DNA from: an uncultured Planctomycetales bacterium
Lineage (GTDB): Bacteria; Omnitrophota; Gorgyraeia; Gygaellales; Profunditerraquicolaceae
Direction: 5' to 3'
NCBI GenBank assembly: GCA_964645795.1
Contig: CAZYCL010000007.1
Coordinates: 26,896-90,895 of the forward strand
Length of the DNA: 64,000 nucleotides
This document shows positions 10,312-28,143 of this stretch, one piece after another. Position 1 is the stretch's first letter; the number at the start of each line of letters is the position of its first letter. The notes beneath the pieces were generated by a model. The model did not search any database and was not told the DNA's origin. It was given only the letters and a program-made list of their open reading frames with translations. The position numbers and the translations under genes are program-made.

Positions 10312-11244
10312 TTAGGTGTAGCGGGAAAGGATTATCTTGGCGCAGGCTAAATCTTTTTCAATTTGTTCAATTAATTCTGAAGTAGAACCGAACTTGCGGT
10401 CTTCTCTTATCTTTTTTACGAACTGTATCTCCAGGTTTTTGCCGTAAATATTTTTCTTGAAATCGAATATATGGACTTCGACATGGCGGCTGTCGCCGTC
10501 AAGGCTTGGCTTTTTTTTCAACTTCCTTACCGTTGGCCTTATGCCTATATAGCAGACGCCGTTCAACTCATTTTCATCCACAACCACCCTGGCCGCGTAA
10601 ATCCCGTCGGGAGGCAGCACCTCATGATGCAAGTCGATATTGGCGGTAGGGAATCCCATCCTGGTGGCCAGGGAATCGCCGCGGATGACCGTACCAAGTA
10701 CGCATACCCGGCGGGAAAGCAGGCCCTCTGCCTGGGCGAGATGCCCCATGCTGATGAGCTTGCGTATATAGGTGCTGCTTATTGGGCGAGAGCCGCGGCT
10801 TTTGACCTTGACTGCCCTTAGGATAAAACCGCACTCGCGCGAGAGCCGGCGCAGCAATCTTATACCGCCGGCTGCGTTTTTACCGAAACGGAAGTTCTCT
10901 CCGACAAATAAGGCTTTGGCGCCGATGCCGGCGCACACCGTATCCCTTATGAATGAAAGGGGGCTGATGCGTGAAAAGCGGCGGCTAAAACGTATAACGC
11001 AACAAACGTCTATGCCTTCTTTTTCGATAAGCCTCAGGCGGTGCTCCAGCGAATAGATGCTTTTTTCGCCGCGCGGATGCGGCCAGAATGTCAAGACCAT
11101 ACTGGTGCCGCGGATATCGCCTGCCTTCTTTACCGCCTGGCGTAATATATCCAGGTGGCCTCGGTGCACGCCGTCGAAGACCCCCATCGCCACCACCGGA
11201 TCCCTGAACTTAGGAAGAACGCTTAGGCCGTAAAATACTTTCAT
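10312..11244 (-). CDS. ribF: bifunctional riboflavin kinase / FMN adenylyltransferase RibF
   Basis: 310 aa with an N-terminal nucleotidyltransferase domain (GVFDGVHRGH) and a C-terminal flavokinase domain. Confidence 0.9.
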   Translation of the reverse strand: MKVFYGLSVLPKFRDPVVAMGVFDGVHRGHLDILRQAVKKAGDIRGTSMVLTFWPHPRGEKSIYSLEHRLRLIEKEGIDVCCVIRFSRRFSRISPLSFIRDTVCAGIGAKALFVGENFRFGKNAAGGIRLLRRLSRECGFILRAVKVKSRGSRPISSTYIRKLISMGHLAQAEGLLSRRVCVLGTVIRGDSLATRMGFPTANIDLHHEVLPPDGIYAARVVVDENELNGVCYIGIRPTVRKLKKKPSLDGDSRHVEVHIFDFKKNIYGKNLEIQFVKKIREDRKFGSTSELIEQIEKDLACAKIILSRYT

Positions 11245-11250
11245 CTCGAT

Positions 11251-12222
11251 CTATCTTAAGCTGCTGCGTATCTTAGCAAGCACTTGCCTTCGCACCGAAG
11301 CCAGCGCCCCTTTTACGGTAGCCCCTGAGGCGGTCCTGTGTCCGCCGCCGTTGAAATGTGAAGCGATCTTGTTGACGTCTACCTTGCCCCGCGAACGCAA
11401 GTTCACGCGTATCTCGCCTTTGGAGCCGAATCGTTCGCGAAAGAGAACCGCCACTTCTACCCCTTTGACCGATCGGCAGAAACTCAATACATTCTCGCCA
11501 AGGTCGAAAGACCTGATATCTTTTTTCAAGAACTTGCGCCTCAGCTCGCACCATATGATCCTGCCCGAAGCCTCGCGCCTAATGCCACCCAACGCGCCGG
11601 CCAGAAGCTTCATATCCTTAAAAGGGATATCTTCGTAACAATAACGGTAAACCTGGGGCACGTCTATATCGAATTGGAGAAGTTCGGAAACCGCCTGATG
11701 GGTCAGGCCGGAGGTATTGGAGTACCTGAACGAGCCGGTGTCGGTAAGTATTCCTACATAAAGGGCCAGGGCAGCCTGACGGTCAAGGGCAACCCCCATT
11801 TCTTTATATAAACGGAATATCATCTCCGAACATGAGGAAGCGGACGGCTCGACCCAGCTTTGGTCGCCGAAGTTATCATTGCTTATATGATGGTCGATAT
11901 TGATTAGCGCCGAGCTGCTGCGGCGCAAAGCCGCTACCTTACCTGCGCGCGAAAGCTCCGAACAATCAAGTACGACCATACAATCAAAATCAATCCGGCT
12001 GCTTTTGGGCCCAAGCTTCTGTATCCGTGCGGCATCGGGCAGGAAATCCAGGCCGTAAGGCAGCGCGTCCTGATTTAAGGCCACCGCCTTCTTGCCCAGT
12101 TTATTTACCAGGCGCAGAAAACCTATCTGGGCCCCTATCGCGTCTCCTTCGGGGCTGGTATGCGCGGTGATCAGAAAATTATCTTTTTCTTTTACGGTTC
12201 GGATTACGCTTTCTAGACTCAA
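11251..12222 (-). CDS. nrnA: DHH/DHHA1 phosphoesterase, NrnA-like bifunctional oligoribonuclease/pAp phosphatase
   Basis: 323 aa with DHH motifs (ITAHTSPEGDAIG; NIDHHISN) and a C-terminal DHHA1 GGGH motif. Confidence 0.8.
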   Translation of the reverse strand: MSLESVIRTVKEKDNFLITAHTSPEGDAIGAQIGFLRLVNKLGKKAVALNQDALPYGLDFLPDAARIQKLGPKSSRIDFDCMVVLDCSELSRAGKVAALRRSSSALINIDHHISNDNFGDQSWVEPSASSCSEMIFRLYKEMGVALDRQAALALYVGILTDTGSFRYSNTSGLTHQAVSELLQFDIDVPQVYRYCYEDIPFKDMKLLAGALGGIRREASGRIIWCELRRKFLKKDIRSFDLGENVLSFCRSVKGVEVAVLFRERFGSKGEIRVNLRSRGKVDVNKIASHFNGGGHRTASGATVKGALASVRRQVLAKIRSSLR

Positions 12223-12655
12223 TTCCCCCTCTCTTTCTCCTCTTTGATGATACCGCCTTCTTCGGGGAGCGCGGCTGCTTTCTCAAAACAGCCTCCTCCT
12301 GCCTGCCGCCGCCGTTTTCCAGCCCCCTTATCTCATCCAGTATCTGTTGTATTCTTACGCTGTATTCGCTGGACATATCCTGCCGGAAGATGATCTCGGG
12401 AGAGAATTTGAGATTAATCCTCTCGGTAATCAGCTTACGGATGAACCCCCGGGCCGACTCCAGCGCCTGGCTTGTCCTCTTATAATCCTCCTCCTTGCCT
12501 AATACGCTGTAGGTGATCTTGGCATGCCGGTAATCGCCCGAAAGCTCTACGCCCGTAATGGTCACAAACCCCAGGCGCGGGTCCTTTAGTTCGCTATGCA
12601 AGATCGTGCTCACTTCCTGTTTTATGGCCTCTGCCACCCTGTCGTGTCTTAACAT
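12179..12655 (-). CDS. rbfA: ribosome-binding factor A with a Lys/Arg-rich C-terminal extension
   Basis: The N-terminal ~120 aa match RbfA (RVAEAIKQEVSTIL...DPRLGFVTITGVELSGDYRHAKITYSV). The last ~35 aa are highly basic. The gene overlaps nrnA by 44 nt. Confidence 0.85.
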   Translation of the reverse strand: MLRHDRVAEAIKQEVSTILHSELKDPRLGFVTITGVELSGDYRHAKITYSVLGKEEDYKRTSQALESARGFIRKLITERINLKFSPEIIFRQDMSSEYSVRIQQILDEIRGLENGGGRQEEAVLRKQPRSPKKAVSSKRRKRGGIESRKRNPNRKRKR

Positions 12656-19804: not shown

Positions 19805-19879
19805 TCGGGGCGACAGGATTTGAACCTGTGACCTCAACGTCCCGAACGTTGCGCTCTAGCCAAGCTGAGCCACGCCCCG
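19805..19879 (-). tRNA. tRNA-Pro (anticodon CGG)
   Basis: The reverse complement folds as a canonical cloverleaf: 7-bp acceptor stem CGGGGCG/CGCCCCG, a D-arm, anticodon stem CAACG/CGTTG with loop TTCGGGA (anticodon CGG), and T-arm ACAGG-TTCAAAT-CCTGT. No CCA is encoded. Confidence 0.9.
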
Positions 19880-20245: not shown

Positions 20246-20836
20246 TTAGAAGTTAACATAATGTCGGGAAGCGGCTCTTTTGGCCAAAATATCAAACTCC
20301 ACATTAACTTTGTCGGAGGGCCCCTTGAAGCCTAAAGTGGTATTCTTAAAGGTGTGGCCGATGATGTAGACGCTGAAGGCCCCGGGCTTGCTGCCCATTA
20401 CCGTAAGGCTTATCCCGTCGACAGCCACGGATCCCTTGGGAAGCAAAAAAGGCGCATATTTATTAGGCACCGCTATATCGAAATAATGATTGCCTTCCCT
20501 GAAACCTTTTTTACGGATAACCCCGGAGCAATCAACGTGGCCGGTGACGAAATGCCCGGAGATCCTGTCGCCAACCTTGAGGCTGCGTTCAAGGTTAACC
20601 TTGTCCGAGACCCTAAGATCGCCCAGGTTGGTCAGCCTCAATGTCTCGGGTATGACCTCGAATGATACCGAAAGTGCAGAGATCCTTACGGCAGTCAAAC
20701 ACGCGCCGTTGACCGCTACGCTTTCGCCTACGCACAGCCCCTGGATTGCGGCATCGGCCTCTATTTCTATCAAACAGGTCTTGCCTCTGTTTATGCTTTT
20801 TACCCTGCCCAGCTCCTCGATTATCCCGGAGAACAT
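20246..20836 (-). CDS. ribE: riboflavin synthase (alpha subunit)
   Basis: 196 aa with two lumazine-binding repeats. The N-terminus MFSGIIEELG is typical of riboflavin synthase. Confidence 0.9.
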   Translation of the reverse strand: MFSGIIEELGRVKSINRGKTCLIEIEADAAIQGLCVGESVAVNGACLTAVRISALSVSFEVIPETLRLTNLGDLRVSDKVNLERSLKVGDRISGHFVTGHVDCSGVIRKKGFREGNHYFDIAVPNKYAPFLLPKGSVAVDGISLTVMGSKPGAFSVYIIGHTFKNTTLGFKGPSDKVNVEFDILAKRAASRHYVNF

Positions 20837-20841
20837 CCTTC

Positions 20842-21936
20842 CTACCTCACGTAAGCCTCGATAAGCATATCTTCCCCGATACGCTTTAGAGAAACATCCT
20901 TTAGCCTGCGCGCCTGACTTATGCGTGCGGCGCCTTTGCCCATGACCGCGCCTACCGCATCTTTGCCGCCGATGATCTTGGGGCTGATAAAAAACATCAC
21001 CTTGTCGACCAAGCCTTCGTCAAAAAGGGAACCGATGAGCGTACCCCCTCCCTCCACGAGTATATTGCTTATATCCATCCTTGCCAGTTTTTTTAAAGCG
21101 TATGTAAGGTTTATCTGTCCGCCTTTTTCTTTGACTTCCAGGATCCTGGCTTTTGCCTCCAGCATCTTTCTATTTTCGGTCTCCTGACCGCAAGAGCTGG
21201 GAAGGGTCACCAGGATCACCTGGGCATTGGCAGAGAAAATGTTTGAGCCCACCGGAGTGCTCAATTGACTGTCTATTACGATCTTAACCGGGTGCTTCTT
21301 GGAGAACCACGCATCCAGGCGCGGATTGTCCCTTAAAACGGTATTGACTCCGACCATGATCGCGTCGTAATCCTTTCGCATGCGGTGGGCCAACCCCCTG
21401 GACTTATCGCTGGTTATCCATTTGGAGTCGCCGCCGGCGGTAGCGATCTTGCCGTCAAGGGATTCGGCTACTTTTACGGTTACAAAAGGAATTTTCTTGG
21501 TGATATATTTTATGAAAACCTCGTTGGCGCGCCTTATCTCTTTTTCCATTACCCCCACGACCACTTTGATCCTGTTTTGCTTTAACGCCTCGATGCCCTT
21601 GCCGTTATTGATGGGGTTAGGGTCGATCATCCCTATCACGACTTCTCTAACCTTGGCGCGTATGATCGCGTCCACGCAGGGGGGCGTCCTGCCGAAATGC
21701 CTGCAAGGCTCCAGCGTCACATAAAGTACGGAACCCCTGGCTTTATCGCCGGCATCCTCCAGGGCCAGGACTTCCGCATGAGCAAGCCCTACGCGCTTAT
21801 GGTATCCTTGTCCGACGATACGTCCATCTTTGACCACAACCGCCCCTACGACCGGATTGGGGCTGGTTAGGCCTTTTGCCTTTAAAGAAAGCTTCAGGGC
21901 CAGCTTCATGTAGTATTGATGATCTCTCATGGGCAC
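20842..21936 (-). CDS. ribD: bifunctional diaminohydroxyphosphoribosylaminopyrimidine deaminase / 5-amino-6-(5-phosphoribosylamino)uracil reductase RibD
   Basis: 364 aa with an N-terminal CMP/dCMP-type deaminase zinc motif (HAEVLAL...PCRHFGRTPPC) and a C-terminal RibD reductase domain. Confidence 0.9.
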   Translation of the reverse strand: MPMRDHQYYMKLALKLSLKAKGLTSPNPVVGAVVVKDGRIVGQGYHKRVGLAHAEVLALEDAGDKARGSVLYVTLEPCRHFGRTPPCVDAIIRAKVREVVIGMIDPNPINNGKGIEALKQNRIKVVVGVMEKEIRRANEVFIKYITKKIPFVTVKVAESLDGKIATAGGDSKWITSDKSRGLAHRMRKDYDAIMVGVNTVLRDNPRLDAWFSKKHPVKIVIDSQLSTPVGSNIFSANAQVILVTLPSSCGQETENRKMLEAKARILEVKEKGGQINLTYALKKLARMDISNILVEGGGTLIGSLFDEGLVDKVMFFISPKIIGGKDAVGAVMGKGAARISQARRLKDVSLKRIGEDMLIEAYVR

Positions 21937-22751
21937 CTCTGTTTGGCTTCTTTTAGCTTGATGACCAGCTCATACGGGACCTTGATGGAGCCTATCATTA
22001 CCTGAGGCTTGGCGTAACCATGACAGTCCGAACCGCCGGTGACAAGCAGGTTGTTCTTGCGGGCGATATCCAGGTAATAGTTAACCATGGACTGCGAATG
22101 TTCCGGATAGTAGACTTCAAGGCCGGCGATACCCATCTTAATGAATTCAAAGATGAGATCGTCGTCTTTGAGCAGATACGGATGCGCCAGGACGGGGATA
22201 CCACCGGCCCCCCTGATGATATCGATGGCCTCGCTGGGGGAAAACTTGAAGCCCAGCACATAGGCCGGGCACTGGTCACCGATGTACTTATGAAAAGCTT
22301 CGAATACGGAAGATGCCTTTGATTCTTTAACCATCGCACGGGCTACATGAAGCCTGCCTACCGTGCCGTTATTGGAAAATTCAAAGATGCTTTCAGGGCG
22401 CAAATTGACGCCCATGCCCTGCAGCTTCTGCACTATCTTATAAACCCTCTCTACCCGGTTTTGCTTAAGGGTCTTTAGTTTCTCAAGGAGGTTGCGGTCA
22501 TGGTGGTCGATAAGGTAGCCCAGGATATGTACCTCCAACCCCCTGTATTCGGCGCTAAACTCTATCGCCGGCAGCACTTCTACGCCCTTGCTCCTGGCCG
22601 CCTCCAAAGCCGGCCCTACCGCATCTACCGTATCGTGGTCGGTAATCGCGATGCAGTCCAGGCCCGCCTTTACGCTTTCGCCCACAAGCCGGTCCGCGGA
22701 AAAAGTACCGTCGGATACATTGGTGTGCAGATGAAGATCCGCAAACTTCAC
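21927..22751 (-). CDS. PHP-family metal-dependent phosphoesterase (TrpH/YciV-like)
   Basis: 274 aa with the PHP N-terminal His motif (DLHLHTNVSDG) and ITDHD. It overlaps nusB by 4 nt and ribD by 10 nt, so it sits inside the rib operon. Confidence 0.8.
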   Translation of the reverse strand: MKFADLHLHTNVSDGTFSADRLVGESVKAGLDCIAITDHDTVDAVGPALEAARSKGVEVLPAIEFSAEYRGLEVHILGYLIDHHDRNLLEKLKTLKQNRVERVYKIVQKLQGMGVNLRPESIFEFSNNGTVGRLHVARAMVKESKASSVFEAFHKYIGDQCPAYVLGFKFSPSEAIDIIRGAGGIPVLAHPYLLKDDDLIFEFIKMGIAGLEVYYPEHSQSMVNYYLDIARKNNLLVTGGSDCHGYAKPQVMIGSIKVPYELVIKLKEAKQRCP

Positions 22752-23164
22752 TTTTTTCTCTCCGTTTTGATCTTATCGAGTATGGCGTTGACGAACTTTC
22801 CGGCTTCCTGACCGGAATACTTCTTGGCCAGATCCACGGCTTCGTTGATGGAAACCTTGGGTGGGATATCGTCCTTTAACAAAAGCTCAAAACACCCGAT
22901 CCTCAGGATATTCCTGTCGAGCACCGCCATGCGCTCAAGCTTCCAATTGGAAGCAAAGGCCGATATCTTTTCGTCGATCCGGGCAAGATTTCGCCAGACC
23001 CCCAGGACAAGCTCCGTAGTAAATTCCATCTGCGCCTGGTCCAGCTTCTCTTCCTGCTGCTGCAACCAAAAACTATCCAGGCACTGCCCGGCATCCTCGC
23101 GGGTAATATCCATGCGATAAAGCACCTGCAGGGCCAATTCTCTGGCGCGGCTTCTTTTTCTCAT
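22748..23164 (-). CDS. nusB: transcription antitermination factor NusB
   Basis: 138 aa; the N-terminus RARELALQVLY and all-helical composition match NusB. It is linked to ribH, as in many genomes. Confidence 0.9.
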   Translation of the reverse strand: MRKRSRARELALQVLYRMDITREDAGQCLDSFWLQQQEEKLDQAQMEFTTELVLGVWRNLARIDEKISAFASNWKLERMAVLDRNILRIGCFELLLKDDIPPKVSINEAVDLAKKYSGQEAGKFVNAILDKIKTERKK

Positions 23165-23189: not shown

Positions 23190-23657
23190 TCATCTTATCT
23201 GAGAGAACAGATTAACCATCTCTATTGCGGAGACCGCCGCATCCCTTCCCTTATTGCCGTCCTTGGTCCCGGCGCGCTCTATTGCCTGTTCGATCGTATC
23301 GGCGGTGATTACGCCGAATATGACCGGGATGCCCGCGTCCTGTGAGACCGCCGCAACGCCCTTTGCGACCTCGGAAGCAACGTATTCAAAATGCGGGGTG
23401 GAACCGCGGATCACCGTTCCCAGGCAGATAAGCGCCTCATATGACTTTGACTTCGCCAGCCTTACGGCTACCGCCGGGATCTCGAAAGCCCCGGGGACAC
23501 GGACAACCCCTATGTCCTTTTCATCCGCACCGTGCCTTACAAGCGTATCAACGCAACCGCTGATAAGCTCTTTGGTGATGAAATCGTTAAAGCGCGAAGC
23601 GATAATGCAGAACTTTTTTCCTTTTGCTATCAGATTACCCTCGATCGTCTTTACCAT
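23190..23657 (-). CDS. ribH: 6,7-dimethyl-8-ribityllumazine synthase RibH
   Basis: 155 aa matching lumazine synthase throughout ([13 protein letters not shown]..., [21 protein letters not shown]). Confidence 0.95.
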
Positions 23658-23671
23658 CTTTCCCCCTTTCG

Positions 23672-24898
23672 CTAGATATTAAGATTGTGGCCGAGTTTCT
23701 CCTTCTTGGCCTTAAGATACTTATAGTTAAGCTCGTTTGGCTCGATCTCCAAGGGCAGGCGCTGGATGACCTTCAGGCCGTAGCCTTCAAGACCCACGAT
23801 CTTACGCGGGTTGTTCGTCAGGAGCATAATGTTCCTTACGCCCAGGTCTACCAGGATCTGGGCTCCGATACCATAGTCTCTCAGATCCGCCTTATGGCCG
23901 AGGGCTTCGTTGGCCTCTACCGTATCCAGCCCTTTATCCTGAAGATTATAGGCCTTGAGCTTCTCGATAAGCCCTATGCCGCGGCCTTCCTGGCTCATAT
24001 AAAGGATGACGCCGGCCTTTTGCTTTGATATGACGCGCATCGCCTCCTGGAGCTGCCGGCCGCAGTCGCAGCGAAGCGAACCGAATACGTCTCCCGTAAA
24101 ACATTCGGAGTGCACGCGTACAAATACCGGTTCGGATGAAATATCGCCCGTCACCAGCGCCGAGTGCACCTTGTTATTGGTCAGGTCCCTATAAAGGACC
24201 ATTCTGTATGTGCCGTATTCCGTGGGCAGGCTTGTTTCAACCAGCCTCTCAATCAGCCTCTCGCAACGCCTACGGTATTCTATGAGAGCGGCGATCGTAC
24301 ACATTTTAAGTCCATGCCTCTTCGAGAAATCGATCAACTGCGGCAGTCGCGCCATGGCTCCGTCGTCGTTCATGATCTCGCAGATCACCCCGGCAGGAAA
24401 CAATCCGGCCATACGCATAAAGTCTACTGCTGCCTCGGTGTGCCCGGCCCTGACCAATACCCCGCCTTTTCTTGCCCTTAAGGGGAAGGAGTGTCCTGGG
24501 CGGATGAGGTCTTCGGGTTTAGACAGCGGATTTGCCAGCACCTCGATCGTGCGGCTGCGGTCATAAGCGGAGATCCCGGTGGTAATACCCGAGGCGGCAT
24601 CAACAGACATCATCCAGGCAGTCGAAAACGGATCCTCTGCCTTGGTTCTTGCGGGATTAAACATCGGATCGAGCCCCAAAAACCTCAGGCGCTCCTCTTC
24701 CATGGGCACGCATATCAATCCGCGGCCGAACTTGGCCATAAAGTTTATGTCCTGAGGCCTGGCAAAAGAGGCAGCCATCACCAGGTCTCCTTCGTTCTCC
24801 CGCTCTTCGTCATCGATGACGATGACCATTTTACCTTTTTTCAGATCTTCCAATATTTCCGGGATTGTGTTAAACATGGATTCTTCCCTTAAAAACAA
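23672..24898 (-). CDS. ribBA: bifunctional 3,4-dihydroxy-2-butanone-4-phosphate synthase / GTP cyclohydrolase II RibBA
   Basis: 408 aa with an N-terminal DHBP synthase domain ([12 protein letters not shown]) and a C-terminal GTP cyclohydrolase II domain with the Zn motif CxCxxxxxC ([20 protein letters not shown]). Confidence 0.95.
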
Positions 24899-25133
24899 TA
24901 AACCCGAAGATGGTCTTCGGGTATAGGATCTCTTTAATCTTCTTTCGTCTAGACTTTGCGCAGGATGCGCTCGGATGCATCTGCGCGCCGCTTGCGCGGC
25001 GCTATCGGCTCTGGAATCTAACCAGATCTGCCATGCACATTATCGGTGTCTTGCGTGTGCAGGGCTCGCGGGCTTTCACCACCGGTTTGGAATTTCACCT
25101 CCCGCACGCCAGGTGCGGGACCCCGAAGATTAG
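24896..25133 (-). promoter_or_regulatory. FMN riboswitch (RFN element) with intrinsic terminator, leader of the rib operon
   Basis: The minus-strand sequence contains conserved RFN blocks: CTTCGGGGTCCCGCACC...AGGTGAAATTCC...ACCGGTGGTGAAAGCCCGCGAGCC...GATCTGGTTAGATTCCAGAGCCGATAGCGCCGCG...AGTCTAGACGAAAGAAGA. A hairpin ACCCGAAGACCATCTTCGGGT followed by TTTATTGTTTTT sits just before the ribBA RBS and start codon, consistent with transcription attenuation. Confidence 0.85.
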
Positions 25134-25140
25134 TTTAATA

Positions 25141-25168
25141 ATTTTACACGATTGGGGCAGGATTGTCA
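25141..25168 (-). promoter_or_regulatory. sigma70-type promoter of the rib operon
   Basis: On the minus strand, TTGACA (plus 25163-25168) is followed by 17 nt and then TAAAAT (plus 25141-25146), placing the transcription start just upstream of the riboswitch. The -35 element abuts the GT2 stop codon. Confidence 0.55.
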
Positions 25169-25170
25169 AC

Positions 25171-26087: not shown

Positions 26088-26561
26088 ATGGCTAAAAGCA
26101 AATTGCGTGCCCTGAGGCGCCGGCTTGCATCACGGAAGCTGACCGTTTCCGTTGCGGAATCCTGCAGCGGCGGCCTGCTTTCTCAATTACTGACGAACGC
26201 ACCCGGCAGCTCTTCGTTCTTTTGCGCCGGACTGGTCCTTTACGCTAACCAGGCCAAGAGCAGGATTCTGAAGATCCCCCCGGCTCTCATCAAGAACTCC
26301 GGAGCGGTCTCCAGAGCCGTGGCGCTCAGGATGTCAGAATCGACCAGGCGACTTATGAAGACGGACCTTGGCGTAGGCATCACCGGCATAGCCGGACCTT
26401 CGGGAGGATCCGCGCGCAAACCCGTAGGAACGGTATTTATCGCCGTCTCCCGAGGCCCAAAGAACACCTGCAGGAGATTCCTTTTCCGCGGCAGCCGGTC
26501 AGCCGTGCGCAGCCAGGCCGCTCAAAAAGCCATCGATATGCTCTTAGGGCTTATAAAATGA
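26088..26561 (+). CDS. CinA C-terminal domain / nicotinamide-nucleotide amidohydrolase PncC-like protein
   Basis: 157 aa with the CinA C-terminal signature LTVSVAESCSGGLLSQLLT...GAS. Confidence 0.8.
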   Translation: MAKSKLRALRRRLASRKLTVSVAESCSGGLLSQLLTNAPGSSSFFCAGLVLYANQAKSRILKIPPALIKNSGAVSRAVALRMSESTRRLMKTDLGVGITGIAGPSGGSARKPVGTVFIAVSRGPKNTCRRFLFRGSRSAVRSQAAQKAIDMLLGLIK

Positions 26562-27133
26562 CCCGCGCCTTCATTGCCATAGAACTGCCTGAATACGTAA
26601 AGCAACAGCTTTTGCGCATACAGGATAAGCTTAAAACCACCGGCGCAGACGTTAAATGGGTGGAACCGAAAAACATCCACCTGACGCTGAAGTTCCTGGG
26701 AGAGCGCGACGATAAGAAGATCGCGCAAATACGCGACGGCCTCGGGCCCGCCTTGGAGGGCATCGGCGTTTACAAGGCAAGCCTTGCCTCTGTCGGCGCC
26801 TTCCCGGATGAACAATCACCCAGAGTGGTCTGGGCGGGGATCGAAGAAGGACGCGACCAAACGTCGCGCATCGCCAAAAGGCTGGAAGAGGCGATCTGTC
26901 TCCTGGGCATCCCCAAAGAAAAACGCCCGTTCTCCTGCCATATAACCCTGGGCCGGACAAGGAGCAACCTCAACCTTGGAAAACTAAGCAGCGCGATAAT
27001 AGAACTGCGATCTCAATCTCTGTGGGAAAACCCCGGGTTTGACGTAGAAAGCATCACGCTCTTTAAAAGCACGCTCTCGCCCCAGGGCCCTGCTTATGAA
27101 GCCCTCAAAGCAGTCAACCTTAAAGCCAGCTGA
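26558..27133 (+). CDS. thpR: RNA 2',3'-cyclic phosphodiesterase (2H phosphoesterase, ThpR/LigT)
   Basis: 191 aa with two HxT/S motifs of the 2H family (HLTLKFLGE; HITLGRT). It overlaps the upstream gene by 4 nt. Confidence 0.8.
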   Translation: MTRAFIAIELPEYVKQQLLRIQDKLKTTGADVKWVEPKNIHLTLKFLGERDDKKIAQIRDGLGPALEGIGVYKASLASVGAFPDEQSPRVVWAGIEEGRDQTSRIAKRLEEAICLLGIPKEKRPFSCHITLGRTRSNLNLGKLSSAIIELRSQSLWENPGFDVESITLFKSTLSPQGPAYEALKAVNLKAS

Positions 27134-27561
27134 AGCACCAGGTTAGTATATAACCCGGCGATGATATCATCAGCCATAATGCCTTTGGCGCCTTTGAGCT
27201 TCTGAAGGTGTCCGGCGGGGAATGGTTTGAGGGTATCGAAGATGCGGAATAGCAGAAATGCCAACACCGTAAGCCTTATGTCCTGAGGCACAAACAACAG
27301 GCTTATGAACATGCCGCTTACTTCGTCGATGACTATGTGAGGGGAGTCTTTTACCCCCAGCGCTTTCTCGGCCCTGCCCGAACAAGAGAAACCCAGGATA
27401 ATAAAGGAGGCGGTCAGCGCCAGATACAGCGTGCAATCACCCCTTACAAGACCGGCCAGCCACAGGGCAGCAAGGCTTGCGAAGCTTCCCGGTATAAAGG
27501 GCAGGTAGCCTACGTAGAAAAAAGTACTTATCAGCTCCGCAACTGCCGTTATAACGCGCAT
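27094..27561 (-). CDS. pgpA: phosphatidylglycerophosphatase A
   Basis: 155 aa membrane protein with PgpA motifs (PGSFASLAAL; IDEVSGMFISL; FRIFDTLKPFP). Confidence 0.8.
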   Translation of the reverse strand: MRVITAVAELISTFFYVGYLPFIPGSFASLAALWLAGLVRGDCTLYLALTASFIILGFSCSGRAEKALGVKDSPHIVIDEVSGMFISLLFVPQDIRLTVLAFLLFRIFDTLKPFPAGHLQKLKGAKGIMADDIIAGLYTNLVLQLALRLTALRAS

Positions 27562-27564
27562 CTT

Positions 27565-28143
27565 CTAAAACATCGATATTATCTTGCGGTTTTCCCAAAG
27601 GTAGGAAAATCCGGAATAAAGGGTAAGACCCACTGTCAAAAGCATCAGAAGGTAAATCGCCTGACGGAATATCGTCTCCCAGGCGGGGTTCCAGGTAAAG
27701 TAGGCCAGCATCGTTTCTTTTATCACTATAAAAACCAGTATCAAAAAGATCACCAGCATCTGGGATATCGTCTTGTGCTTGCCCGCCCTGGCAGCAGAGA
27801 GCACCTTGCCCTTGTTCAGGGCAAAAAGCCTGATTGAAGTGATCAGTATCTCGCGCGAGACGATGATCACGAACATCCAGGCCTCGATCAGCTGCATCTG
27901 CACGAACGCCGCGAATGCCGCCAAAACCAGGATCTTATCAGCGATAGGATCCATTAGCCTTCCGAAGTCGGTTACCATGTTCTTCTTCTGGGCGATCAGT
28001 CCGTCAAAGAAATCGGAAAGGGCGGCGAAGATGAAGAGCGCCAGGCTCAAAATCTTATATATCAAGCCGTGACAGAACAAGAAAAACATGAAGACGAACG
28101 TAAGCACTATCCTTAACATGGTAAGCTTATTGGCAATATTCAT
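27565..28143 (-). CDS. pgsA: CDP-diacylglycerol--glycerol-3-phosphate 3-phosphatidyltransferase
   Basis: 192 aa with the CDP-alcohol phosphatidyltransferase motif D(x2)DG(x2)AR...G(x3)D(x3)D (DFFDGLIAQ...DPIADKIL). It is adjacent to pgpA. Confidence 0.85.
   Translation of the reverse strand: MNIANKLTMLRIVLTFVFMFFLFCHGLIYKILSLALFIFAALSDFFDGLIAQKKNMVTDFGRLMDPIADKILVLAAFAAFVQMQLIEAWMFVIIVSREILITSIRLFALNKGKVLSAARAGKHKTISQMLVIFLILVFIVIKETMLAYFTWNPAWETIFRQAIYLLMLLTVGLTLYSGFSYLWENRKIISMF

Follow-up and report, generated by a model that had tools for sequence, protein, structure and literature searches.

A PHP-domain phosphoesterase coupled to nusB in the riboflavin operon of Omnitrophota

The 64,000-nucleotide (nt) stretch of contig CAZYCL010000007.1 analyzed here (hereafter the window) comes from an uncultured bacterium of the Omnitrophota and carries a riboflavin operon in which the gene for a PHP-domain phosphoesterase is lodged between nusB and ribD. 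Given this position, we wondered whether the PHP protein serves the riboflavin pathway or whether it entered the operon together with another gene. An earlier note on this DNA had proposed the former, with the PHP protein as a candidate non-HAD phosphatase of 5-amino-6-ribitylamino-uracil 5'-phosphate (ARPP, also ARAPDP). On this reading the enzyme would strip the 5'-phosphate from ARPP, which it receives from RibD, and pass the product on to RibH; three unrelated kinds of enzyme are known for this “missing” step of riboflavin biosynthesis, and it would be a fourth. As an alternative, the note named an RNase AM-type enzyme cotranscribed with nusB, and of the two readings it is this one that our analysis supports better. 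The constant partner of the PHP subfamily is nusB, often followed by ftsY, and not the riboflavin genes. On the basis of sequence comparison we propose, with moderate confidence, that the gene may encode an RNase AM/TrpH-type 5'-phosphate-dependent 3'-phosphoesterase that is coupled to NusB and was brought into the riboflavin operon along with nusB.

Gene order within and outside Omnitrophota

A scan restricted to one genome per species returned 377 relatives, and synteny was read from the best 80 of these (56-66% identity), all of which are annotated as Omnitrophota or as unclassified metagenome-assembled genomes. The closest homologues of the window protein, 61-69% identical to it, belong to Candidatus Omnitrophota. 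When the six proteins of the window were used as tblastn queries, the order ribBA-ribH-nusB-PHP-ribD-ribE was recovered in 80 of 80 Omnitrophota loci, 67 of them complete and 13 cut by a contig end; since every species locus shows the same order, the arrangement is not due to chance. The same core order surrounds four divergent PHP proteins (P0124, P0127, P0393, and P0135; 43-47% identity to the window protein), two of which, P0393 and P0135, are annotated as Omnitrophota. Where nusB and the PHP gene overlap, as they do in 53 of the 80 loci, the overlap is always 4 nt.

Surveying related riboflavin operons, as the earlier note had suggested, gave a divided answer: the rib operons of all close relatives (Omnitrophota) contain the PHP gene, whereas in the next-closest phyla its conserved neighbors are nusB or RNA-processing genes. 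Outside Omnitrophota, three of the closest relatives turned out by Pfam to be fusions, NusB::PHP. A search with one such fusion returned at least 94 clusters at 90% identity with both domains (378-484 amino acids, mutual identities down to 35%), assigned, where named, to Planctomycetota, Brocadiia, or Candidatus Brocadia; one of the fusions is present on more than 50 contigs. The fusion loci show the order ribH, NusB::PHP, ftsY, with ribD, ribE, and ribBA located elsewhere, and a scan of three of these loci revealed no FMN (flavin mononucleotide) riboswitch, an arrangement that argues against dephosphorylation of ARPP as the role of the PHP domain. In Auribacterota (locus L095), the order is FMN riboswitch, ribBA, ribH, nusB, PHP, ftsY, ribD, ribE, with overlapping nusB/PHP and PHP/ftsY junctions and a gap of about 175 nt ahead of ribD. 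Here ftsY is enclosed just as the PHP gene is, although it takes no part in making riboflavin, so that such a position is not specific evidence for a riboflavin function. The order nusB-PHP-ftsY-ribD recurs in a metagenome locus (L096), and a further one (L097) holds nusB-PHP-ftsY between a TIM-barrel gene upstream and accC downstream, with no rib gene on the contig. Conversely, a PHP gene adjoining rib genes without nusB was encountered in 0 of the 135 loci. Both observations again speak against the ARPP role. A metagenome scan with the Auribacterota protein sampled 40 relatives (28-48% identity over the best aligned segment) and, seeded by this single protein, brought up no close relatives from Auribacterota.

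All the nusB-linked lineages compared retain ribH next to nusB, and adjacency of ribH and nusB is widespread in bacteria generally. We suggest that the PHP gene lies inside the riboflavin operon because nusB is there. Its position then says little about its function, since nusB and ftsY are equally embedded and neither has a riboflavin role. A nusB-PHP(-ftsY) module would have become enclosed once ribD-ribE came to lie downstream, and Omnitrophota would later have lost ftsY from the cluster. With this, a candidate for the “missing” phosphatase of the riboflavin pathway that was attractive but weak would drop out.

Two further contexts bear on the function of the family. The order rny (encoding RNase Y)-(ymdB)-(spoVS)-PHP was seen in nine loci, from Bacillota relatives at 46-49% identity and from further metagenome loci; the rny-linked relatives of Bacillota type are equally close. 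This recurrent neighborhood is a further point against the ARPP role. In soil metagenomes (loci L104-L114 and L125), the PHP gene instead follows, in this order, genes for fumarase, an Fe-S protein (HesB/IscA-like), and a Fur-rubrerythrin fusion, so the gene is not always found beside RNA genes. This third context is consistent with a plain housekeeping phosphatase of adenosine 3',5'-bisphosphate (pAp) or a nanoRNase, comparable to CysQ, Orn, or NrnA and functionally unconnected with NusB or riboflavin, for which adjacency and fusion would be neutral traces of an old gene order. We regard such a role as unlikely: fusion across so many clusters, down to 35% identity, and the 4-nt overlap in most Omnitrophota point to selection on co-expression, and the rny-ymdB context suggests RNA turnover or processing rather than pAp hydrolysis alone. 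In a separate arrangement (locus L116, 4707-7945), the order is nusB, murB, PHP, and a Mur-ligase-like gene, with murB separating nusB from the PHP gene.

Fold, active site, and 5'-phosphate pocket

In the PHP protein of the window, Pfam recognizes no domain besides PHP. The best NCBIfam model is that of 3',5'-nucleoside bisphosphate phosphatase (NF041577; 173.4 bits, E 5e-51, equivalog cut-off 400), followed by that of RNase RNM, or RNase AM (NF047791; 147.1 bits, cut-off 375); the first of these matches favors the pAp-phosphatase reading. Among solved structures, the only strong matches are the RNases AM of Vibrio cholerae and Escherichia coli, Bad1165, and Cv1693, all over the full length and with E values of 1e-25 to 1e-30. 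An AlphaFold model of the protein (mean confidence score, pLDDT, 92.2) predicts a PHP barrel of the distorted (beta/alpha)7 type into which a helical domain is inserted, the architecture that marks the TrpH (COG0613) branch of the PHP superfamily, to which RNase AM, Cv1693, and Bad1165 belong. Foldseek superimposes this model on the full-length structures 9ETK, 3E0F/3O0F, and 2YB1 with template-modeling (TM) scores of 0.84-0.89 over 262-277 aligned columns; for 7UG9, a structure of E. coli RNase AM limited to its PHP domain, the scores are 0.62 (query) and 0.82 (target). We also tried the histidinol-phosphate phosphatases (HisK/HisJ-type) as a candidate family and rejected them (NF004981, 21.8 bits against a cut-off of 117; TM score of 0.33 to 2YXO).

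The protein thus compares with two sets of characterized enzymes. With RNase AM (YciV/TrpH; 7UG9 from E. coli and 9ETK from V. cholerae) it shares the two-domain fold, with a TM score of 0.87 to 9ETK, at identities of 31% (9ETK) and 23% (7UG9). Unlike those enzymes, the window gene is coupled to nusB and has relatives fused to it; yciV of E. coli lies beside the trp operon. The pAp phosphatases Cv1693 (2YB1) and Bad1165 (3E0F/3O0F) represent the best-matching NCBIfam family and fall within the above range of TM scores, and the C-terminal TGGSDxHGxxKP motif is common to Bad1165 and the window protein; the match nevertheless stays far from the family cut-off, identity is 27-29%, and the genomic context differs. 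The subfamily to which the window protein belongs is large, its representatives scoring 210-313 bits against the query, whereas the proteobacterial enzymes, RNase AM among them, reach only about 100 bits.

To compare residues, we aligned 390 sequences: the window protein, the 4 solved enzymes, 119 Omnitrophota relatives, 91 NusB fusions, 150 representatives from clustering at 50%, and 25 others. In E. coli RNase AM, the trinuclear metal site is formed by H13, H15, D20, H45, E72, H83, H198, D255, and H257, and R107, R110, and R141 make up a pocket that receives the first nucleotide's 5'-phosphate (PMC9410882). The window protein has all nine ligands (H7, H9, D14, H39, E64, H75, H190, D242, and H244), of which eight are invariant in the 119 Omnitrophota relatives, while the ninth, D242, is conserved in 118; the pocket arginines correspond to R99, R102, and R133. 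Every aligned group, rib-linked or not, shows little or no variation at the nine ligands or at R99, R102, R133, and H135, and these residues match the residues of E. coli RNase AM, Cv1693, and Bad1165. This conservation of both the active site and the 5'-phosphate residues would equally suit the pAp-phosphatase reading. It counts against the ARPP reading: ARPP has a single phosphate, so that an invariant arginine triad for a second, 5'-phosphate would have no obvious use there, whereas it suits nucleoside 3',5'-bisphosphates (pNp) or RNA with a 5'-phosphate (5'-P RNA) as substrates.

No residue signature that distinguishes rib-embedded PHP copies from the others was found in the 390-sequence alignment, a further point against the ARPP role. 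Position 192 varies (Y, H, F, G, or L), and Y192, R138, and D159 are specific to Omnitrophota and missing from the other rib-embedded lineages. Average-linkage clustering of the representatives gave no clean clades; genomic contexts were sampled directly instead.

A proposed NusB-coupled enzyme and the points that weigh against it

How might such an enzyme work? By homology, the trinuclear metal center would activate a water molecule for attack on the phosphate esterified to a nucleotide's 3'-oxygen. R99, R102, R133, and H135, located in the cleft that separates the barrel from the helical insertion domain, would hold the 5'-phosphate of that nucleotide. TrpH-type enzymes act as 5'-to-3' oligoribonucleases and diribonucleases and are strongly active on pAp (PMC11528712), activities that are also cited in favor of the pAp-phosphatase reading. 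The window enzyme would accordingly trim 5'-monophosphorylated RNA or short oligoribonucleotides from the 5' end, and/or hydrolyze pAp to adenosine monophosphate and phosphate. From the fusion, the rny-ymdB context, and the trimming of ribosomal RNA (rRNA) by E. coli RNase AM (PMC9410882, PMC11528712), we infer a role at RNA 5' ends: trimming or clean-up of RNA, plausibly maturation of the rRNA leader or 5' end, in step with NusB-dependent rRNA transcription.

It is tempting to go one step further and to view the PHP protein as a NusB-tethered 5'-to-3' exoribonuclease, a hitherto unrecognized accessory of NusB/NusE-BoxA antitermination of rRNA that would trim rRNA leaders or 5' ends cotranscriptionally. 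It would then exist as one polypeptide in Planctomycetota and as a translationally coupled gene pair in Omnitrophota and Auribacterota, in both of these phyla under FMN-riboswitch control, an odd place for a module of ribosome biogenesis. This more specific proposal is tentative, and we consider it less likely than not. A loose analogy is offered by SuhB, a protein of the IMPase fold that joins NusB/NusE in the complex for rRNA antitermination in E. coli, where its role is structural and not catalytic. Like the PHP protein in the proposed scheme, SuhB is a phosphatase-fold protein recruited to the NusB machinery and may thus serve as a precedent for a phosphoesterase working alongside NusB; the folds of the two are unrelated, and the PHP protein is tied to NusB by gene coupling or fusion.

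Several observations weigh against a NusB-coupled RNase AM-type enzyme. Some concern the protein. With scores far below both NCBIfam equivalog cut-offs, it is a family member and an equivalog of neither enzyme. The arginine that contacts the scissile phosphate (Arg201 in E. coli RNase AM) is absent, as a 2-residue deletion turns “AHPGR” into “AHPY”, so that the substrate range may differ from that of the characterized enzymes; this Gly-Arg deletion is general to the subfamily at 38-66% identity, in rib-linked and other copies alike. An invariant lysine, Lys248 in a GxAKP motif, may take the place of the missing arginine. The predicted structure of the fusion (overall confidence, pTM, 0.64) has two domains modeled with confidence, a disordered linker of about 18 residues (pLDDT <50) between them, and no confident fixed NusB-PHP interface; the fusion would therefore tether the domains rather than lock them together. 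A flexible linker of this kind is in keeping with the pAp-phosphatase reading. In addition, the window encodes an NrnA-like DHH/DHHA1 protein of 323 amino acids (NF053633, 126 bits, cut-off 350) between rbfA and ribF, the latter being the gene for a bifunctional riboflavin kinase/FAD (flavin adenine dinucleotide) synthetase. With such a candidate in the same window, hydrolysis of pAp and nanoRNA may already be covered, a point that tells equally against the pAp-phosphatase reading.

Other observations concern the operon and lean toward the ARPP reading. In all 80 Omnitrophota species the PHP gene is embedded in a rib operon controlled by an FMN riboswitch, which in the window has a probable expression platform of the terminator type, and riboswitch-controlled rib operons with the PHP gene are found in further divergent lineages as well. 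The gene for RibH, the consumer of the ARPP phosphatase product, lies upstream in most nusB-linked loci. The best point for the ARPP reading is the PHP/ribD junction, the tightest of the operon: the two genes overlap in 46 of 77 Omnitrophota loci and come within 20 nt of each other in 71 of 77. Moreover, PHP enzymes can be phosphomonoesterases, as Cv1693 is on pAp, and no known type of ARPP phosphatase is evident in the window: the statement of the earlier note that none is encoded holds for the 56 open reading frames (ORFs) of the window scanned with Pfam, which show no HAD, His_Phos, or IMPase domain. The note also took the characterized ARPP phosphatases to belong to the HAD superfamily, a view that no longer holds, since a histidine-family phosphatase and an IMPase of Aquifex have been shown to catalyze the step (PMC12051542; reviewed in PMC13151069). 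The step is thus carried out by unrelated, lineage-specific enzymes, which makes another one conceivable. With these enzymes (HAD proteins YigB, YbjI, YcsE, YwtE, YitU, and the AtPyrP2 type, besides the two from Aquifex) the PHP protein would share the proposed phosphomonoester hydrolysis only: there is no kinship in sequence or fold, Pfam and NCBIfam matches being of the PHP type alone. None of the known ARPP phosphatases has been reported within a rib operon, and no PHP enzyme is given for the dephosphorylation step in a 2026 review of riboflavin biosynthesis (PMC13151069). Taken together, the fusion to NusB, the co-embedding of ftsY, the rib-less locus, the rny-ymdB relatives, and the invariant arginine triad weaken the case that had been made from operon position, and we consider an ARPP phosphatase quite improbable here.

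The window enzyme, though divergent, belongs to a known family, and what appears to be undescribed is the coupling and fusion to NusB. Full-text searches found no literature linking NusB with a PHP domain, and nothing relevant for COG0613 combined with riboflavin. The conserved coupling and the widespread natural fusion of NusB to an RNase AM-type PHP protein extend over at least three phylum-level lineages. If functional, the pairing would tie a 5'-to-3' exoribonuclease or pNp phosphatase to an rRNA antitermination factor and would give a physiological role to a large uncharacterized branch of TrpH proteins in phyla without cultured models.

Operon anatomy, riboswitch, and neighboring genes

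The gene order ribBA-ribH-nusB-PHP-ribD-ribE claimed for the window was recovered by ORF calling, Pfam, and NCBIfam, with all six genes on the minus strand (Table 1). The reported 4-nt nusB/PHP overlap is present as well, as a GTGA common to the TGA stop of nusB and the GTG start of the PHP gene. At the PHP/ribD junction, the overlap itself is real, but the 10 nt given for it apply only if ribD starts at the GTG at 21936; an in-frame ATG at 21930 would reduce it to 4 nt, as a canonical ATGA shared with the PHP stop. This ATG is the likely true start of ribD in place of that of the longest ORF; 4 nt is also the commonest PHP/ribD overlap among the relatives. For ribBA, too, the longest ORF is likely not the true one: the alternative start, a TTG at 24898, falls within the U tract of the terminator, and the likely start is the ATG at 24877, with AAGGGAAG just before it.

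Table 1. Coordinates, strand, and supporting evidence of the features discussed in the window
Feature	Position	Strand	Evidence or remark
ribBA (DHBP synthase/GTP cyclohydrolase II)	23672-24898	-	ORF call, Pfam, NCBIfam
ribH (lumazine synthase)	23190-23657	-	ORF call, Pfam, NCBIfam
nusB (transcription antitermination factor)	22748-23164	-	TIGR01951, 144 bits (cut-off 88); Pfam
PHP-domain phosphoesterase, TrpH/RNase AM/Cv1693 family (feature under study)	21927-22751	-	274 amino acids; PF02811
ribD (deaminase/reductase)	20842-21936	-	ORF call, Pfam, NCBIfam
ribE (riboflavin synthase)	20246-20836	-	ORF call, Pfam, NCBIfam
FMN riboswitch aptamer (RF00050)	24933-25134	-	58.1 bits, E 1.6e-12, model positions 1-138 of 138
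Sigma-70-like promoter before the riboswitch	25141-25169	-	TTGACA-17-TAAAAT, 11/12 consensus matches
Terminator-like hairpin with U tract, probable riboswitch expression platform	24892-24922	-	ACCCGAAGACCATCTTCGGGT
tRNA-Pro(CGG)	19805-19879	-	
pgpA	27094-27561	-	
CDP-alcohol phosphatidyltransferase gene	27565-28143	-	
CinA-domain gene and overlapping LigT gene	26088-27133	+	
NrnA-like DHH/DHHA1 gene	11251-12222	-	NF053633
rbfA	12179-12655		
ribF	10312-11244		

The FMN riboswitch upstream of ribBA is likewise supported. The window aptamer matches the full model and contains two unusually long insertions of 31 and 49 nt, owing to which it stays under the Rfam gathering score for RF00050 (66.2) and would be missed by default annotation; we recovered it with an E-value threshold instead. 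Relatives have an FMN element in the corresponding place: it exceeds the gathering score in 9 of the 10 Omnitrophota loci tested and in 4 additional ones, with 79-115 bits, so that 13 related loci carry an above-gathering element. The promoter ahead of the riboswitch is a consensus match only, such sites being no more frequent in the region than in shuffled controls, and a promoter scan of the window region revealed no convincing internal promoter for nusB-PHP, with counts not above those of the shuffled controls.

Control by FMN raises one more reading, namely a flavin-nucleotide role other than that on ARPP, such as the removal of FAD caps from RNA by an enzyme induced together with the rib genes at low FMN. 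RNase AM does take intact FAD off FAD-capped RNA (PMC9410882), and the riboswitch is found both here and in Auribacterota. However, deFADding and the ordinary hydrolysis of 5'-P RNA depend on the same residues and could not be separated (PMC9410882); the Planctomycetota fusions lack the riboswitch, FAD caps are rare, and there is no specific sequence signature, which together make this role very remote. As an observation in its own right, the operon places nusB, an essential housekeeping gene, behind an FMN riboswitch with a terminator-type platform, and in Auribacterota (L095, 3597-7736) ftsY stands behind it too.

The surroundings of the operon hold a few further features. The tRNA gene lies directly after ribE, and of 10 Omnitrophota loci inspected, 9 have a tRNA gene in this place. 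The genes pgpA and that for the CDP-alcohol phosphatidyltransferase are situated some 2 kb upstream of the operon, a neighborhood that recalls the ribD-ribH-nusB-thiL-pgpA arrangement of E. coli. On the plus strand, the CinA-domain gene overlaps a gene for a LigT 2',3'-cyclic phosphodiesterase (2'-5' RNA ligase family), and the pair is divergent from a glycosyltransferase gene beside the operon promoter; LigT or CinA genes likewise occur near Bacillota PHP loci (L085 and L091). Finally, in a Candidatus Brocadia locus (L090, 3076-3186, minus strand), a c-di-GMP-I riboswitch (53.5 bits) lies upstream of a tatC-like gene.

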